Virus record (IMG/VR): IMGVR_UViG_3300036884_000676
Source of the DNA: a virus
Taxonomy: Duplodnaviria > Heunggongvirae > Uroviricota > Caudoviricetes
Strand: one strand, 5' to 3'
DNA length: 64,000 bases
Shown: piece after piece, positions 6,049 through 32,644 of the stretch
How the letters are laid out: each line of letters opens with the position of its first letter
How positions within the stretch are numbered: the first letter of the stretch is position 1
The notes under the pieces: generated by a model
What the model was told of the DNA's origin: nothing
What the model saw: only the letters and a program-made list of their open reading frames with translations
Database searches by the model: none
Translations under genes and position numbers: made by a program

Positions 6049-6413
6049 ATTAATATTTCATCAAGTCTGATTTTTCTTATTTCGTTTTTATATTCTTCTG
6101 TTTTTAGTTCCCTGTTATGATCCTTAAAAATTCCAAAGTAATAATATCTTTCACCATTCAACCACCAAGCTTTATAGAAATATTCTATAACAGCTGGCCC
6201 ACATTCATTATGTCTTTTCCCGTCCTTAAAAATTTCTATTCGGTGAAGTTTATCATCTTTATCAAGTTTTCTGACGATACAATTCATAAATCTCCTATGA
6301 TGTAATAAGGGTTTTACTACCTTTTCAACAAAATCATAAATATACAATTCATTCTTCCTAAGTTCAAAGACACTATATTCAATTCCATTATATGTCTCTT
6401 TGTATTCTTTCAT
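6045..6413 (-). CDS. HNExGPA-family paralog 4
   Basis: RHNECGPAV...WWLNG...RKIRLDEIL. Confidence 0.7.
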   Translation of the reverse strand: MKEYKETYNGIEYSVFELRKNELYIYDFVEKVVKPLLHHRRFMNCIVRKLDKDDKLHRIEIFKDGKRHNECGPAVIEYFYKAWWLNGERYYYFGIFKDHNRELKTEEYKNEIRKIRLDEILI

Positions 6414-6765
6414 TTAATGTCTCTTTCAATATTTTACTTCTCTTGTAATTTATTACATATTCCGTCCAGTTATTACCAGTATATTTTATTTTCTTACCAT
6501 CTAAATAGTATTCTCTGATCACATCAGATACGAGAATTCTTTCAATCGCTGGTTCGAATTCGTTATGAAATTTACCATCTTTGAAATACATGGTTTCATT
6601 AATCTTAGCTCCATCTGTCCTTGTAAATGTTGTCTTTACTTTTGAATATTCCTTATCTTTTACAAAAATTCTCCATTCTCTTTTCATTTGAGTATGAGAG
6701 AGTTTTTTATTATCCAAAATTAAAACTTCATATCTAATATCATTATATATTTCCTTAGATTTCAT
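6388..6765 (-). CDS. HNExGPA-family paralog 5
   Basis: FHNEFEPAI...YYLDG...RSKILKETL. Confidence 0.7.
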   Translation of the reverse strand: MKSKEIYNDIRYEVLILDNKKLSHTQMKREWRIFVKDKEYSKVKTTFTRTDGAKINETMYFKDGKFHNEFEPAIERILVSDVIREYYLDGKKIKYTGNNWTEYVINYKRSKILKETLNERIQRDI

Positions 6766-8090
6766 ATATCTTCTTCAGCTGGTAAATCATCTTGAATAAC
6801 AATCTGTTTAGGTGAACCTGCTATAATACCACATTCCTTTCCTATGGAAAGAATTAATGTTTTCTTTAATTTAGACACATCCAAATTATCAGTAAAACCA
6901 TCAGTAAGAATTACGGTATTCAATTGATTGATTTGACTACATCCTACTATAAAATCAATAGCTGGTTGGAGTGTTGTTCCACCACCACCTACTAATTGTA
7001 TCTTCTTAAATTCCCTTTTATTGTTAATAACGGTATAATCTCTTTTCCCCTGTCTTTTTACCTCTACATCACATTGAATCAGATTAATTTTAATTTTATT
7101 TTGAAAAATATAAGACAATACTCTTTGAAAATAACCACCCATTGAACCAGACACATCAAGTATAACATTTAATCCAAATCCGATTTTGAATCTACCTTTG
7201 ATTCCTTCTATTGATCGTCTGTTTCTTTTCGAAATACTTTTTTCTTTATTATATCCTCTTATAGATGATATAGCTGTTTTAATATCTCTCAGGTAATCTT
7301 TTCTTGATTTCTGTAATTTTTCCAAGGTTATTTTTATGTTAGCCTTTTCCAAACCACGACTTCTGAGATATCTTTGAACTCTACCAACTACTTCTTTTTT
7401 AAAATCATCAGATAGATCACAAGGTAAATGATTATCTAACCAATTTTTAATACCATCATCCATTCCATCAAAGACCTTCTTCAAATAATCACTTACTGGA
7501 CAATCCCCAGATTTTCCTTCCTTCCCACTACCTTGTCCTTGACAACTTCCACCTTTTTTCCATTCATTATATTTTCTCTTTTCCTGTTTTAACCATTCAT
7601 AAAGATCCTCGAATACATGCTGACCCTTATATTCCTTTGGCATCATAAGAACCCAAACATCATCAATTGTTTTATCTAAATAGCTAACCTTTTCCGTAGG
7701 AAGTTCGAGAAAATCTTTTGATGGTTTTGTAGTATCAATTAAATCGGAATAAATGGCTTGATTTATACACATATCCTGAGCTATATTACTCATTTCATGA
7801 TTGTATCCACCTCTACGGGTTCTTTTTGGATGATCAAACAATAAATGGAAAATTTCGTGAATGACAATGAAATTAATGTGCTTCTGAGGGGTAGAGTTGA
7901 CGAATTCTCTATTCCAATAACACACCATTCCATGAGTGTTCACAGTAACACCAATTCTTTCAACATGCTTTGATTCCTCGAAATTTATAAATTGACAAAA
8001 TTCACCATAGTAATAGAGCAATAATACCATATCACTCATCATTTCGTCAATACACTTAACTATTTTCGGATGTAGATTACTTCTATTCAT
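6762..8090 (-). CDS. Metallopeptidase-like (HExxH) plus VWA-like domain protein, usual partner of MoxR ATPases
   Basis: IHEIFH...NIAQDMCIN; MIDAS DVSGS; GGGGTTL; ILTDG. Confidence 0.85.
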   Translation of the reverse strand: MNRSNLHPKIVKCIDEMMSDMVLLLYYYGEFCQFINFEESKHVERIGVTVNTHGMVCYWNREFVNSTPQKHINFIVIHEIFHLLFDHPKRTRRGGYNHEMSNIAQDMCINQAIYSDLIDTTKPSKDFLELPTEKVSYLDKTIDDVWVLMMPKEYKGQHVFEDLYEWLKQEKRKYNEWKKGGSCQGQGSGKEGKSGDCPVSDYLKKVFDGMDDGIKNWLDNHLPCDLSDDFKKEVVGRVQRYLRSRGLEKANIKITLEKLQKSRKDYLRDIKTAISSIRGYNKEKSISKRNRRSIEGIKGRFKIGFGLNVILDVSGSMGGYFQRVLSYIFQNKIKINLIQCDVEVKRQGKRDYTVINNKREFKKIQLVGGGGTTLQPAIDFIVGCSQINQLNTVILTDGFTDNLDVSKLKKTLILSIGKECGIIAGSPKQIVIQDDLPAEEDI

Positions 8091-8119: not shown

Positions 8120-8677
8120 CTAAAAAATTATTCTGGAAGAAATTTTATTATAAATATCCAATGATATACCTTTATCAATGTGTACTTTTATTTTCATTTC
8201 TTCTCTCATGGATTTCTTAGGAGATTTAAAGGTTTTATCAAAATCTTCTGGATTTCTTTTCCCTATTTTTTTATTTAAATCTTTAAGTCTTTCGATTTCA
8301 AATTTATTAATAGTTCTTATCCTATTAGAGTATAAAGTTTTCAATGAATCTAATGCTTCTTCTTTATTACCAAATATCCATTGAAGAACATCCAAATTCT
8401 TTACCTCGACATCTGTTGATTTAACCTTGTAAAGAATTAATACACCTGTTCTGTTTATTGAATATTTCCTTCCTCTTATAGTAAAATTAATAAAATCCCC
8501 ATTCTTGGTAATATCCTTAACTTGATTTTCACCAATCATTTGTTTTATATAATCAATAAGGTTTGGTAAGGATTGATCTTTGGAAAAAACAATTCCGAGT
8601 TGTTGGTTAACAACCGAGTCGTAATAATGTTCTAAAATAGGAAAGCTATAATCATAGAAGTCCAACAAGAATTCCAT
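8120..8677 (-). CDS. Hypothetical protein
   Basis: 185-aa ORF after a TAATATATA motif. Confidence 0.6.
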   Translation of the reverse strand: MEFLLDFYDYSFPILEHYYDSVVNQQLGIVFSKDQSLPNLIDYIKQMIGENQVKDITKNGDFINFTIRGRKYSINRTGVLILYKVKSTDVEVKNLDVLQWIFGNKEEALDSLKTLYSNRIRTINKFEIERLKDLNKKIGKRNPEDFDKTFKSPKKSMREEMKIKVHIDKGISLDIYNKISSRIIF

Positions 8678-8725
8678 TCCATTTGATATATTTTTAGGTA
8701 TATATTAAAAATAAAAAAACAAAAA

Positions 8726-8943
8726 CTGTTATCTCATAGCCGCGATTCTGTTTCTACTCTTACATTTGTCTAATGCCTTTCGACATTCCCCGAAGGGTGC
8801 CCCAACCCGACCTCATAGGAAAACCGACATCCTCAGTCTGTTTGGGTTGCTACTTCCGCGGTTCAAACGACCTTACGGTCTCCCTCGTTAGGTTTTGTAG
8901 TCGCGAACTTCCTCTGGTTTCCCAGCGTAAGATCGAACAACAG
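8726..8943 (-). ncRNA. rnpB: Minimal (~218 nt) RNase P RNA
   Basis: GAGGAAGUUCGCGA and ACAGAAUCGCGGCU form a compensated P4; P1, P2, P3, P5, P6 and P15 with the L15 GGU are all identifiable by pairing. Confidence 0.88.
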
Positions 8944-8966
8944 TTTTTGTTCTAAGTTACAAAGTT

Positions 8967-8974
8967 ACAAAAGT
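8967..8974 (-). promoter_or_regulatory. Bacteroidota-type -7 element TAnnTTTG upstream of rnpB. Other copies: + 10835-10842, 21513-21520, 26346-26353, 30116-30123, 33556-33563, 40589-40596; - 45932-45939, 48821-48828
   Basis: Nine exact matches to the Bacteroidota primary-sigma -7 consensus, all intergenic and at operon starts. Confidence 0.75.
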
Positions 8975-9029
8975 ACAAATTATAATCTTACCAAAAAAAT
9001 CAATTGTCTTTTTAATATATATTAGTACT

Positions 9030-10387
9030 ATGATTACCAGTTTTAAAATATTCGAAAGTTCATTCAAACAATTATCTATTCCAGTAGTTAATAGATATGT
9101 TTATCATTCTTCTAATCCAATATTTAGGAAATCAATATTAGAAAAAGGTTTGATACCAAAAAAAGGGGACAAAGAATTGGAGAAGATCATTATGGTAAAG
9201 CTATATTTGTCACTAATTCAGATAAGAAAAAAGATTGGTTTGATTCGACCTATGATGACGATGTTTATAAGATTGATACAACAAAGACAAATAATTTATG
9301 GTATAAGGATCTAAATATGTATTCAAAAAGCATAGGATCTGATATTTATATTTTAACATTTGAACCTATTCCTCCAGAATCCATAGAATTAATTTATAAG
9401 GGGAGTGGAAATGATAAACTAAAAAGAAATTGGAGAAAAAATAGAATTGTTGAAGAATTAGATTTAAAATCAAATCCATTAATATTTTGGCACGGAACAG
9501 CTAGTCAAGATTTAAGAGGAGGACTTAGTGGTTTACACTTAGGTACTTATGAAGCAGCCAAGATAGCATTAGAAGCAACAATAGGGATTCCAGTAAAAGG
9601 AGAATGGGATGGGAAAAGAGAATATGGGAAAACAAAACTATCTGGTAAAAAAAGATTAAGAACAGGAGAAAAAGGTAAATATCGTATTTCTGGATATAAT
9701 TGTGACATACCAGATGATGATTTTTTTCCAGTAGATAATCCATATAAAGCAAAATATTCAAATGGAGAAGAAATTTCTTTGAAATGTAAACCAATTATTT
9801 TTCCTTGTAAAATTGTTGGACCAATGACAAACACGATTCACAATCCACATTCTGATGATATGGCCAATTCAATGATGAAAGGACAATTAAAAAAAGGGAA
9901 TGCTAAAAAAGGTTATTATTATATAAATGATGTGGAAGATTCAGGATCGATTTCAGTAGTAGTTCCAAATTATAAACATATAGAAATTATGAAAAATGTA
10001 TCGGAAAATGTTACACCAAAAACGAGGATTGAAGATGAAATAGATCGTCTGATGGATAAGGGGTATAAAAATCTTACTCCAGATGAACAGGATTTTTTAA
10101 AAAATCCATATAAATCAACTGAAGAACCAAAAGAAGAACCAAAAAAAGAAATTTTGAAATATTATAGTATAGCTGAAGATTTCTTTCGTAGAGTCTTATC
10201 AACAGATGTCAGGAACTATGAATTAAATGATAATCTTGATATTTTTGATATTGTAAAAGATGATAATGAAGCTTTTGATGTTGCCAATACAATCTATTAT
10301 AAATATGGTATTCAAATAGATCCTGAAAACAACGATGAATTTAAATTAGTTAATATATTCAAGAAAATTAATAGTAAAATCAAATAA
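9030..10387 (+). CDS. Multi-domain ART/Tpt1-like protein split by a -1 frameshift at A7G4 (9158-9168)
   Basis: YHSS...SILEKGL domain continues in the -1 frame (GQRIGEDHYGKAIF...) without a stop into ORF 9317; second FWHGT...GLHLGT domain. Confidence 0.65.
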
Positions 10388-10859: not shown

Positions 10860-12080
10860 ATGGATAAGTATAGTTTCCTTGACCAAGACCAATACAAGTT
10901 TACGATGATGCAGGCCGTCATTCGACTTTTTCCAAATTTAATAGTCAGATACAAATTCATTAATCGTGGAAAGACAGTTTGGCCAGAGGGAATGGCTCAA
11001 AAACTCAGAGAACGATTGAAACGATTTTCCGAGGAAGCAATTCTTACAAAAGAAGAATTGGAATATCTTTCTGGAATCCGTTTTTTCCTTCCATTCTTCC
11101 TTTGGGTTCTTTCAAAATATCGTTTCGATGTAAGTGAAGTTCATGTTACCGATAATATTGACGATACCTATGTTGAGGGATACTGGTGGAGAACAATCCT
11201 TTGGGAATGTATATTTTTATCAATGTTATCTGAGTTATATCACGAGATGACAGGTCATAAACTTCCCGAAAGAAGTATCCTTACCAAACTTAATATGAGT
11301 AAAGGGTGGGATTTTTATAAAAACGACATCAATTTCGTTGAAGCTGGTTTCCGCCGTAGGTTTTCTTTCGATAACCAAGATTATGTTATCAATGATTTGA
11401 TTAAATCCTCAAAAAGTTGTCTTATCGGTACAAGTAATGTATATTTCGCTAAAAAATACAATCTGATACCAATCGGGACTGTCGCTCACGAATGGTACAT
11501 GGCTCATTCAGCTATGTTCGGATATCATGAAGCAAACCGTAAATCATTAGAAGATTGGATCAGGGTTTACAATGGAGATTTGGGTACGGTATTACCCGAC
11601 ACTTTCACATCAAAGGCATTTTTCAACATTTTCGATACACACTTCGCTAAATTGTTTGATGGGTTCAGACAAGATAGTGGTGATCCCTTTATCATCGGTC
11701 ATTTGGGTCTTGATAATTATTACAGGACAATTCATGATAAACATATAATTCAGTCAAAGTCAGTTATTTTTAGTAACGCCTTGGATAATCTCAAATCAAT
11801 CCTTGAAATCAGTGATGAATTCAAAAAAGAACTTATTACCCGTTTCATGATTGGAACTTGGTTAACTTGTGATATTCCTATCATTTCGGATGAATCGAAG
11901 TCTGTTGATTTTTCTACTATGGAAAAAATAAAACCATTAAACATTGTCATGAAATTATCTCATGTGTTTATTGATGGTGTATGGATTCCTGTTGTTAAAT
12001 TGGGAGATGGTAGTGGGGAGAAATATACAGGTGATCCCAATCAGATTGATTTAGCAAAAAGAATTTTAAATATTAAGTAA
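10860..12080 (+). CDS. pncB: Nicotinate phosphoribosyltransferase
   Basis: LDQDQYKFTM, EAGFRRRFS, GTSNV, GTVAHEW, PDTF, RQDSGDP, LNIVMK, KLGD. Confidence 0.92.
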   Translation: MDKYSFLDQDQYKFTMMQAVIRLFPNLIVRYKFINRGKTVWPEGMAQKLRERLKRFSEEAILTKEELEYLSGIRFFLPFFLWVLSKYRFDVSEVHVTDNIDDTYVEGYWWRTILWECIFLSMLSELYHEMTGHKLPERSILTKLNMSKGWDFYKNDINFVEAGFRRRFSFDNQDYVINDLIKSSKSCLIGTSNVYFAKKYNLIPIGTVAHEWYMAHSAMFGYHEANRKSLEDWIRVYNGDLGTVLPDTFTSKAFFNIFDTHFAKLFDGFRQDSGDPFIIGHLGLDNYYRTIHDKHIIQSKSVIFSNALDNLKSILEISDEFKKELITRFMIGTWLTCDIPIISDESKSVDFSTMEKIKPLNIVMKLSHVFIDGVWIPVVKLGDGSGEKYTGDPNQIDLAKRILNIK

Positions 12081-29872: not shown

Positions 29873-29956
29873 GGCTGGGTGGCGGAACTGGTAGACGCGC
29901 GGGACTTAAAATCCCGTTCCTGTATGGGAGTGTGGGTTCAATTCCCATCCCGGCTA
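29873..29956 (+). tRNA. tRNA-Leu(UAA), canonical class II
   Basis: Full cloverleaf, loop CU-UAA-AA, long variable arm. Confidence 0.93.
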
Positions 29957-30773: not shown

Positions 30774-30904
30774 GAGTGTATTAGTGTAACGAAAGCACAG
30801 GCTGTTTGATGTTAGAGTAAGTTTTAGACGGCGGTCTTGGTCATTAGATTGACAAAACTGAAATATCGTAGGTCGGATGAGGGTTCAAATCCCTCATACA
30901 TTCC
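30774..30904 (+). ncRNA. tRNA-like RNA whose anticodon loop is replaced by a ~55-60-nt structured insert
   Basis: 8-bp acceptor GAGUGUAU/AUACAUUC, D arm GUG/CAC, T arm GAGGG-UUCAAAU-CCCUC; no assignable anticodon. Confidence 0.65.
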
Positions 30905-31899: not shown

Positions 31900-32025
31900 T
31901 GTAGTAGCGAGTTTGAGTGTTACTTCGTAGCTCAACAGTCGAGCATCAATCAGTTAAATTGAAAGTTGTGGGTGCGATTCCCACCGAACCCGAAAGGGTA
32001 ATATCACTCAATGATTATCTCTACA
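31900..32025 (+). ncRNA. tRNA-Asn(GUU)-like domain whose acceptor is embedded in a long closed stem
   Basis: D, anticodon (UCAAU-CAGUUAA-AUUGA) and T arms present; 3' acceptor strand interrupted by a CCC-GAAA-GGG hairpin. Confidence 0.6.
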
Positions 32026-32459: not shown

Positions 32460-32551
32460 GGGAGTGTAGCTGATTTGGTTTAGCGGCAGACCGTTAATCT
32501 GTGACTGAAAATATTGAAATAAAGTTGGTTCGACCCCATCCTCTCCCGCCA
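32460..32551 (+). tRNA. tRNA-Asn(GUU) with a 21-nt AU-rich variable region, CCA encoded
   Basis: GCAGA-CCGUUAA-UCUGU then GACUGAAAAUAUUGAAAUAAA. Confidence 0.8.
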
Positions 32552-32559
32552 GTACATAT

Positions 32560-32638
32560 TGTGGTGTATCCCCCATGTCTTATAAACATGCATTAAAAGG
32601 GTAATAGCGTGTATGTGGGTTCGAGTCCCACCACCACA
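32560..32638 (+). tRNA. D-armless tRNA-Ile(UAU)-like RNA with long variable region
   Basis: UGUGGUG/CACCACA-A, CAUGU-CUUAUAA-ACAUG, T arm; 6-nt D replacement UAUCCC. Confidence 0.7.
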
Positions 32639-32644
32639 ACAAAT

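Follow-up and report, generated by a model that had tools for sequence, protein, structure and literature searches.

RNase P is a universal ribozyme whose two-domain design is textbook knowledge, and in bacteria its specificity (S) domain docks the T/D elbow of the tRNA. The organellar RNase P RNAs, such as yeast mitochondrial RPM1 and plastid rnpB, are of bacterial descent and have lost peripheral elements. To our knowledge, forms free of an S domain were previously known only as laboratory constructs and, as type T, in a few archaea. The catalytic (C) domain of the Escherichia coli RNA alone ('Eco CP RPR') is able to cleave, at a rate ∼120-fold lower, and requires a P6-type pairing but not P18 (Mao et al. 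2018, PMC5839562). The archaeal type T RNAs of Pyrobaculum and the Thermoproteaceae are ∼200 nucleotides (nt) long and, as summarized in PMC5839562, combine a degenerate S domain with a C domain in which a P6 has been modelled (Lai et al. 2010, PMC3579882). Here we describe an RNA gene in a 64,000-nt stretch of DNA from a huge phage of peat (referred to below as the window), which corresponds to positions 124,537–188,536 of the 210,983-bp IMG/VR record IMGVR_UViG_3300036884_000676, estimated to be 71% complete. On the basis of homology and structure, we are confident in identifying its product as a miniature RNase P RNA carried by the phage. A single copy of this RNA is present in the record.

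Gene, relatives and catalytic domain

The RNA is encoded on the minus strand at 8726–8943, in an island that contains no open reading frame (ORF) and has a GC fraction of 0.49–0.52, compared with ∼0.25 in the surrounding DNA. The island lies in a 350-bp gap bounded by divergent ORFs at 8120–8677 (−) and 9030–9314 (+). A preliminary description, made from the sequence alone, had proposed a gene of ∼218 nt. That core was confirmed, but P1 in this copy can be extended to 16 uninterrupted base pairs (bp) and is then followed by a U-run at 8717–8707. We therefore take the gene to span about 8718–8951, and with the longer P1 these are probably its limits.

Relatives were collected using blastn against published huge-phage genomes and using a pair of degenerate patterns, each matching a different half of the RNA, against IMG/VR; the pattern searches gave 23 and 73 stretches. 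About 70 of the 73 pattern matches on viral contigs are real; a first, looser DNA pattern had returned mostly chance hits. Confirmation with nhmmer yielded 91 hits in 90 loci, which reduce to 70 distinct sequences, many of them from contigs of 100–490 kb. The E-value of 2.5e-70 for the window RNA against the three-sequence seed is true by construction, the window RNA being part of that seed; the relatives match the seed at 1e-50 to 1e-5. Identity to the 735-kb LR756501/LR756503 is 77% and is confined to the RNA in the blastn comparison, and LR745206 (635 kb) also has a copy. Members of the family share a length of 188–255 nt, a CR-I (conserved region I) of the GAGGAAGUUCG type, a P7-like stub of 18–63 nt, GCAAnnCAAACAG and CGGGUUG around P15, and a location on viral contigs, and the window RNA has all of these traits.

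We aligned 61 full-length distinct sequences with MAFFT, placing the window RNA in the first row (alignment A2), and transferred its structure to the other sequences. Pairs in the helices of variable length (outer P1, P3, the stub hairpin and P18) are under-counted by this procedure. Standard pairs occupy 82.6% of the 3,711 cells, compared with 35–45% when the 3′ partners are slid by 1–3 columns, and the covariation score is 0.541, compared with 0.09–0.145 for the slid alignments. None of 500 column shuffles reaches the observed values. When run without a supplied structure, and blind to pseudoknots, RNAalifold returns P2, P5, P15, P16 and P17. The invariant columns correspond to the universal RNase P core: GAG-AA-UC (CR-I), GC-A in the joining segment J5/15, ACAG, CGGGU, AG...AU (CR-IV) and CA..A....G...A (CR-V). 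The architecture is maintained by purifying selection, and compensatory changes are seen in no fewer than 61 distinct phage sequences. The features of the window RNA are listed below, with pairing percentages and double changes taken from the 61-sequence alignment.

8718–8951 (−): whole RNA gene, 234 nt with the extended P1 (probable limits)
8726–8943 (−): core as given in the preliminary description, 218 nt
8721–8944 (−): span of the RF00010 alignment from a targeted Rfam scan
8936–8951 (−): P1 5′ strand, with its inner 8 nt at 8943–8936 and its outer 8 nt at 8951–8944; pairs with 8733–8718
8927–8932 (−): P2 5′ strand, UCUUAC; 97.3% paired, compensatory changes in 6 of 6 pairs, also returned by RNAalifold
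8914–8925 (−): P3 hairpin, CUGG-GAAA-CCAG, read from the sequence; this region is 10–42 nt long across the family
8901–8914 (−): CR-I (J3-4) and P4 5′ strand, GAGGAAGU(U)CGCGA; the bulged U is 8906
8897–8900 (−): P5 5′ strand, CUAC, pairing with 8853–8850; 98.8% paired, also returned by RNAalifold
8891–8895 (−): P6 5′ strand, AAACC, forming a pseudoknot with 8825–8821; 79.7% paired, double changes in 5 of 5 pairs
8857–8887 (−): P7-like helix of 5 bp, 8887–8883/8861–8857, around 21 nt (8882–8862); 78.4% paired
8844–8850 (−): J5/15 GCAA and P15 5′ strand CCC; the G, the C and the second A are invariant (G108, C109, A111)
8809–8838 (−): P16 (8838–8835/8812–8809), P17 (8832–8830/8820–8818) and a loop with the P6 3′ strand (8825–8821), from covariation and RNAalifold
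8801–8808 (−): unpaired GGGUU (the L15, or J16-15, GGU motif), then P15 3′ strand GGG; CGGGU shows no variation among the 61 sequences
8775–8797 (−): P18-region insert with hairpins CCC-UUCG-GGG (8797–8788) and GUC-GAAA-GGC (8784–8775), read from the sequence
8758–8772 (−): CR-IV, UAGACAAAUG, and P2 3′ strand GUAAGA; A187, G188, A193 and U194 are invariant
8737–8757 (−): J2/4 and CR-V, GUAGAAACAGAAUCGCGGCUA, with the P4 3′ strand at 8745–8738; C208, A209, A212, G217 and A221 are invariant
8707–8733 (−): P1 3′ strand (8733–8718) and U-run (8717–8707), read from the sequence

All of the elements of a type A catalytic domain are present, namely P1–P5, the P4 pseudoknot with its bulged U, P6, P15–P17, the unpaired L15 GGU, CR-I, CR-IV and CR-V. 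Direct reading of the sequence confirms the P1 of the preliminary description (CUGUUGUU/GAUAACAG at 8943–8936/8733–8726) and its P4 (GU(U)CGCGA at 8908–8901 with UCGCGGC at 8745–8739); P2 (UCUUAC/GUAAGA), P3 (CUGG-GAAA-CCAG), P5 (CUAC/GUAG) and AGACAAAU are likewise found where that description had placed them. The inner part of P1 is 74.5% paired in the family, with double changes in 9 of 9 pairs. P4 consists of 8 pairs and the bulged U8906 and is 99.0% paired, with double changes in 6 of 8 pairs; G44, A45, G46, A48, A49, U52 and C53 in CR-I and P4 are invariant in 61 of 61 sequences. The CR-IV motif (AGNNNNAU in J18/2) and the J5/15 adenines are also in place, including the invariant A187, G188, A193, U194 and G108, C109, A111. 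P16 and P17 are 99.2 and 89.4% paired, respectively, and the P18 region is present in 22 of the 61 family members and absent in the other 39. The P4 region of E. coli M1, which we take to be GGAAAGUCCGGGC/ACAGAACCCGGCUUA, would differ from the phage strands GGAAGUUCGCGAC/ACAGAAUCGCGGCUA by four compensatory changes through which the 8 pairs and the bulged U are presumably kept.

Two helices of the domain are better drawn differently than originally proposed. P6 was correctly located at 8896–8891/8825–8820, but U8820 belongs to the 3-bp P17, so that P6 is 5 bp (8895–8891/8825–8821) rather than 6 bp in length. The proposed P15, CAACCC/GGGUUG, is not supported by the alignment: it has no compensatory changes, and 20 of the 61 sequences are unpaired at each of the two variable positions. 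The register CCC 8846–8844/GGG 8803–8801 is 98.9% paired, with 26–31 double changes at each of its two variable pairs, and leaves GGGUU (8808–8804) single-stranded. In type A RNase P, an unpaired GGU in the same place pairs with the 3′ RCCA of the tRNA. P15–P16–P17 with this unpaired GGU, together with the P6 pseudoknot, place the RNA with type A rather than type B.

Members are found almost exclusively in viruses. When the 5′-half pattern was run against 596 Gb of cellular genomes, it gave 41 matches, of which 2–3 are real and lie on small contigs of metagenome-assembled genomes (MAGs). The other 38–39 are chance matches, for example in coding sequence of Variovorax and Psychrobacillus. The only clear members in the cellular collection are from a Candidatus Roizmanbacteria MAG (L210, a 3-kb contig) and an Actinomycetes MAG (L213, a 2.3-kb contig), and these contigs are probably mis-binned phage fragments. 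One carrier has been cultured. The Stenotrophomonas phage vB_SmaS-DLP_6 (DLP6) has a family member at ∼105,767–106,016 of KU682439.2 (L250:1154–1403; nhmmer E-value 5.5e-37), located inside a tRNA array 10 nt upstream of tRNA-Arg(CCG), in a gap that is unannotated in GenBank. The paper describing the DLP6 genome (PMC5349666) makes no mention of an RNase P RNA copy.

In two other relatives, the RNA gene is split in the P16/P17–P6 loop by an insert of ∼490 nt (L129, and L130:8618–9283 (−) from IMGVR_UViG_3300033069_001170). The insert holds an ORF of 136 amino acids (L130 8704–9114, −) with an HNH-type motif, HRIVAEVFHG...EVDHKN, and matches no intron family in Rfam. It could represent an intervening sequence or mobile intron of the ribozyme gene, or else the copy may be disrupted.

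Specificity-domain stub and Rfam matches

As the preliminary description had stated, the S domain is almost entirely deleted. The P5 strands are separated by 43 nt. P7–P14, together with CR-II and CR-III, are not present, and all that remains is a 5-bp helix enclosing 21 nt, compared with ∼145 nt of specificity domain in bacteria. We regard this helix (8887–8883/8861–8857) as the counterpart of P7 because of its position as the next helix after P5 and the 5′ strand of P6. The enclosed 21 nt form an internal loop (GA/GUUUGAA) and a hairpin, GACC-GUAA-GGUC (8880–8869), that is 71.3% paired in the family.

The reduction is shared by the relatives, and a full S domain was found in none of the 61 aligned sequences. 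The distance between the P5 strands ranges from 41 to 85 nt in the family (median 48; 43 in the window), the content of the P7-like helix from 18 to 63 nt (median 22; 21 in the window) and the length of the core from 188 to 255 nt (median 216; 218 in the window). The stub positions G78, C89, G90, A96 and C97 are 89–97% conserved, which argues that the stub is not a mere scar of the missing domain.

The relationship to bacterial RNase P RNA was also evident with the Rfam covariance models. In a scan of 241 nt (8715–8955), RF00010, the model for bacterial RNase P class A, gave a glocal match over model positions 1–367 with 22.1 bits and an E-value of 2.2e-5; it was the top hit and the sole RNase P-clan family reported for the RNA. 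The alignment matches P1–P5, GCAA-P15-AAACAG, CGGGU, UAGAnnAAUG and ACAGAA...GGCUA, and deletes 110 and 15 positions of the S domain, which are collapsed to 18 and 20 nt in the phage RNA. A distant family member (L193) scores higher against RF00010 (41.1 bits, E-value 8.6e-12), and in its alignment 50 nt take the place of 160 model positions.

A number of observations weigh against the identification. The check with Infernal that the preliminary description had suggested found RF00010 from end to end, yet only in the targeted scan and with 22.1 bits against a Rfam gathering score of 100, which is below the threshold for membership. A scan of the whole window at gathering thresholds gave 23 tRNA hits and no RNase P match, a permissive Rfam scan of 900 nt was also without an RNase P match, and a search of the whole 210,983-bp record with RF00010 returned nothing at E ≤ 10. 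RF00010 also gives no hit on LR756501, which is the closest relative, or on the copy in DLP6, although both are clear members of the family by nhmmer and alignment. The retrieval patterns themselves account for some of the sequence invariance, although each of them fixed only one half of the molecule. Finally, the single-sequence minimum free energy (MFE) is unexceptional (z = −1.44), a value that is uninformative because pseudoknots lie outside the MFE model. The covariance-model evidence is therefore real but modest. Together with the covariation in 61 homologs, the RF00010 alignment bears out the proposal of an RNase P RNA that is carried by a phage and derives from bacterial type A. The unreached gathering score and the unannotated gap in DLP6 indicate that phage genomes are systematically under-annotated for miniature RNase P RNAs.

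tRNA genes, protein partner and genomic context

The main functional association of the family is its embedding in tRNA arrays. A tRNA gene lies within 50 nt of the RNA in 35 of the 90 loci and within 1 kb in 55 of them. The window copy and its nearest relatives are solitary, without a tRNA in the locus, and the distance of 21 kb from the window copy to the nearest tRNA gene, which starts at 29,873, counts against a role in tRNA maturation. The window contains 22–24 tRNA genes, 22 of which are called by ARAGORN in its standard cloverleaf mode with ordinary D arms and GTTCRA T loops; the Rfam tRNA hits mostly span the whole model, with 48–71 bits. At least 20 of the ∼24 genes are canonical, and ∼3–4 are odd:

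30775–30903 (+): tRNA-like gene of ∼130 nt with anticodon UUA ('tRNA-Stop' by ARAGORN) and an insert beside the anticodon; 30.5 bits on the Rfam tRNA model
31924–31988 (+): tRNA-like gene with a 4-bp acceptor stem and, from the D-armless mode of ARAGORN, a D arm; inside the array
32460–32548 (+): long tRNA-like gene of ∼90 nt, inside the array
32560–32639 (+): tRNA-like gene of 80 nt, folding without a recognizable D arm, inside the array

In its D-armless mode, ARAGORN assigned a D arm to the short gene at 31924–31988 and found nothing in the other odd genes. The gene at 30775–30903 may encode an intron-containing ochre-suppressor tRNA, a possibility relevant to the genetic code of the phage. 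Copies with the same anticodon are repeated within the arrays (Gln ×6, Leu ×8 and Asn ×3 by ARAGORN).

Homologs of RnpA (PF00825) occur in 3 of the 53 carrier records and in 2 of the 15 that are at least 90% complete. They belong to LR745206 and to two genomes of ∼480 kb, score above the Pfam cut-off with 46–49 bits and contain the RNR motif (AVDRNRIKRL):

L206:1465–1812 (+), equivalent to ∼76,408–76,755 of LR745206.1: RnpA homolog
L208:1498–1797 (−): RnpA homolog
L207: RnpA homolog

With an rnpA gene and the miniature RNA, these three phages would hold both subunits of an RNase P, in keeping with an RNA that has a bacterial-type protein as its partner. A point on the other side is that we found no rnpA gene in the record containing the window (71% complete) or in the complete 735-kb relative LR756501. 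For this reason a host protein is the predicted partner, and most carrier phages, including that of the window, probably rely on host RnpA.

These observations suggest the following model. The RNA would be transcribed as its own unit, as indicated by a solitary gene in a divergent gap and by a P1 that is followed by a U-run. It would assemble with an RnpA-type protein, supplied by the host in the case of the window phage, and would cut the 5′ leaders from precursor tRNAs, chiefly those of the phage's own tightly packed arrays. Recognition would proceed through the acceptor stem, the nucleotides at the cleavage site and the 3′ end, with no use of the elbow, as in the engineered C-domain-only ribozymes. 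The likely benefit would be an extra or host-independent capacity for tRNA maturation during infection. The RNA is probably an active tRNA 5′-processing ribozyme. The fuller proposal, that large phages have a C-domain-only RNase P of their own which is active in vivo with host RnpA (or, in a few cases, phage RnpA) and matures the phage tRNA arrays, is the one toward which we lean.

Other functions can be envisaged for such an RNA. An active ribozyme might act mainly on substrates other than tRNAs, such as hairpins or tRNA-like structures in operon mRNAs, regulatory RNAs or the odd genes at 31924–31988 and 32560–32639, and would then serve phage-specific RNA processing. C-domain-only ribozymes do cleave model hairpins (PMC5839562), the window copy and its nearest relatives have no tRNA in their loci, and a few non-canonical tRNA-like genes are present in the window. 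This is nevertheless unlikely given that tRNA arrays are the strongest context of the family (the 35 of 90 loci with a tRNA within 50 nt) and that the invariant L15 GGU points to a tRNA-like 3′ end. The RNA could also be a decoy or competitor that binds host RnpA or precursor tRNAs but does not catalyze productively, thereby titrating the RNase P of the host as part of takeover. In favor of this, the regions generally known to bind protein (P2/P3, CR-IV and CR-V) are conserved and most carriers are without an rnpA gene of their own. However, the bulged U of P4, the J5/15 adenines, the ACAGAA of CR-V, the L15 GGU and the P6 pseudoknot would be superfluous for a decoy, yet all are invariant or covarying, and an RnpA encoded by some of the phages makes little sense for a sponge; we consider a decoy quite unlikely.

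The preliminary description had explained the loss of the S domain as a specific adaptation to D-armless or expanded tRNAs. Giving up elbow docking should in principle relax the requirements on tRNA shape, and the genes at 32560–32639, which folds without a normal D arm, and at 30775–30903, with its large insert, could be viewed as the corresponding substrates. This explanation did not hold up and we regard it as improbable: the tRNAs of the window are mostly canonical, the D-armless search gave a D arm in the short gene and nothing in the other odd ones, and the same minimal architecture is common to ∼90 loci of diverse phages with ordinary tRNAs. In DLP6, the minimal ribozyme is found alongside 30 annotated ordinary tRNAs. 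The minimal architecture is thus a trait of the family and not a response to the tRNAs of the window phage. It is scarcely credible that the RNA is what is left of a captured bacterial rnpB gene that has lost its function and is decaying. The deletion relative to bacterial rnpB is indeed large, but in the 61 diverged sequences pairing of the core helices reaches 97–99% and compensatory cells number in the hundreds, no catalytic base varies and the size is uniform (188–255 nt, median 216), and the covariation in particular contradicts decay. We retain the proposal of a phage RNase P that matures tRNAs as the preferred one.

The flanking DNA offers few signals for expression. The U-run at 8717–8707 is a possible termination signal, and a scan for sigma-70 promoters and hairpin terminators found nothing convincing on the minus strand, the U-run not being called by the simple terminator scan. 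One feature lies directly upstream of the gene:

8960–8975 (−): two tandem TAnnTTTG words, a candidate Bacteroidota-type −7 element

At 117 occurrences versus 100.7 ± 9.6 expected, the TAnnTTTG word shows no enrichment in the window. The pair gives a weak lead toward a Bacteroidota-type −7 promoter element and was not used for host assignment. Near-identical DNA is contained in peat metagenomes of 12 studies, and 8400–9300 is completely covered by a DNA run from a sample that may be the source. Contigs from three peat metatranscriptome sets give zero cover of the same interval, which is no evidence on expression either way.

Among the neighboring genes, the ORFs at 8120–8677 (−), 9030–9314 (+), 9317–10387 (+) and 6388–6765 (−) match no family in Pfam or PHROGs, and the neighbors offer no hint of function. 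A basic protein of 185 amino acids is encoded downstream of the RNA and has only weak homologs, located ∼1 kb from the RNA in two relatives. Also downstream is a DUF2201 metallopeptidase/VWA-like gene at 6762–8090 (−). A gene of the DUF2201 type follows the RNA in four relatives as well (L177, L186, L093 and L134; 36–63% identity), a synteny that is conserved across diverged huge phages. A nicotinate phosphoribosyltransferase (NAPRTase) gene, an auxiliary gene of NAD salvage, is present at 10860–12080 (+).

Comparison with known RNase P RNAs

No phage- or virus-encoded RNase P RNA was found in the literature searched, which included the papers on the LR756501 huge phage, the DLP6 genome and rnpB annotation, with most subscription journals outside the search; exact phrases such as 'phage RNase P' had no occurrence in this literature. 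Within the literature searched, RNase P RNA is thus known, and a viral, naturally S-domain-less form of the bacterial type was not previously known. If such a phage RNase P is active in vivo as proposed, it would be the first RNase P encoded by a virus, with the smallest natural RNase P RNA of the bacterial type, and would demonstrate in nature that biological function does not require recognition of the elbow by the S domain. Viruses would then carry part of the tRNA-processing machinery beside their tRNAs, tRNA synthetases and ribosomal proteins. The family would supply natural sequence variation for minimal ribozymes of ∼200 nt and would raise testable questions, such as how substrates are chosen without elbow docking and whether host RnpA is borrowed or competed for. 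With Stenotrophomonas phage DLP6 as a cultured carrier, the question would be directly testable.

The phage RNA is most similar to bacterial type A RNase P RNA (rnpB; E. coli M1; RF00010), with which it shares the whole C domain and, in a few phages, an RnpA of the bacterial type. It differs in being ∼220–234 nt rather than 350–400 nt in length, in the absence of P8–P14 and of CR-II and CR-III, and in having an optional P18 region that has no P8 on which to dock. It is also phage-encoded and almost absent from cellular genomes. The organellar RNase P RNAs are AT-rich and have often lost helices of the C domain along with RNA-alone activity, whereas in the phage RNA the C domain is complete and GC-rich. 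Like the engineered C-domain-only ribozymes, the phage family is without an S domain and retains P6, and P18 is missing in 39 of the 61 sequences. Those ribozymes are laboratory deletions, however, whereas the phage RNA, known from its sequence alone, is a natural gene under selection with a conserved P7-like stub.

A degenerate S domain is the only feature that the phage RNA shares with archaeal type T. Type T RNAs are archaeal, function with archaeal proteins and are without P18, whereas the window copy has an insert in the P18 region and its best hit in the clan is the bacterial model. The bacterial sequence signature and the occasional presence of a bacterial-type RnpA in the phage family therefore indicate that the S domain was reduced independently of type T, and that the two miniature forms are convergent.

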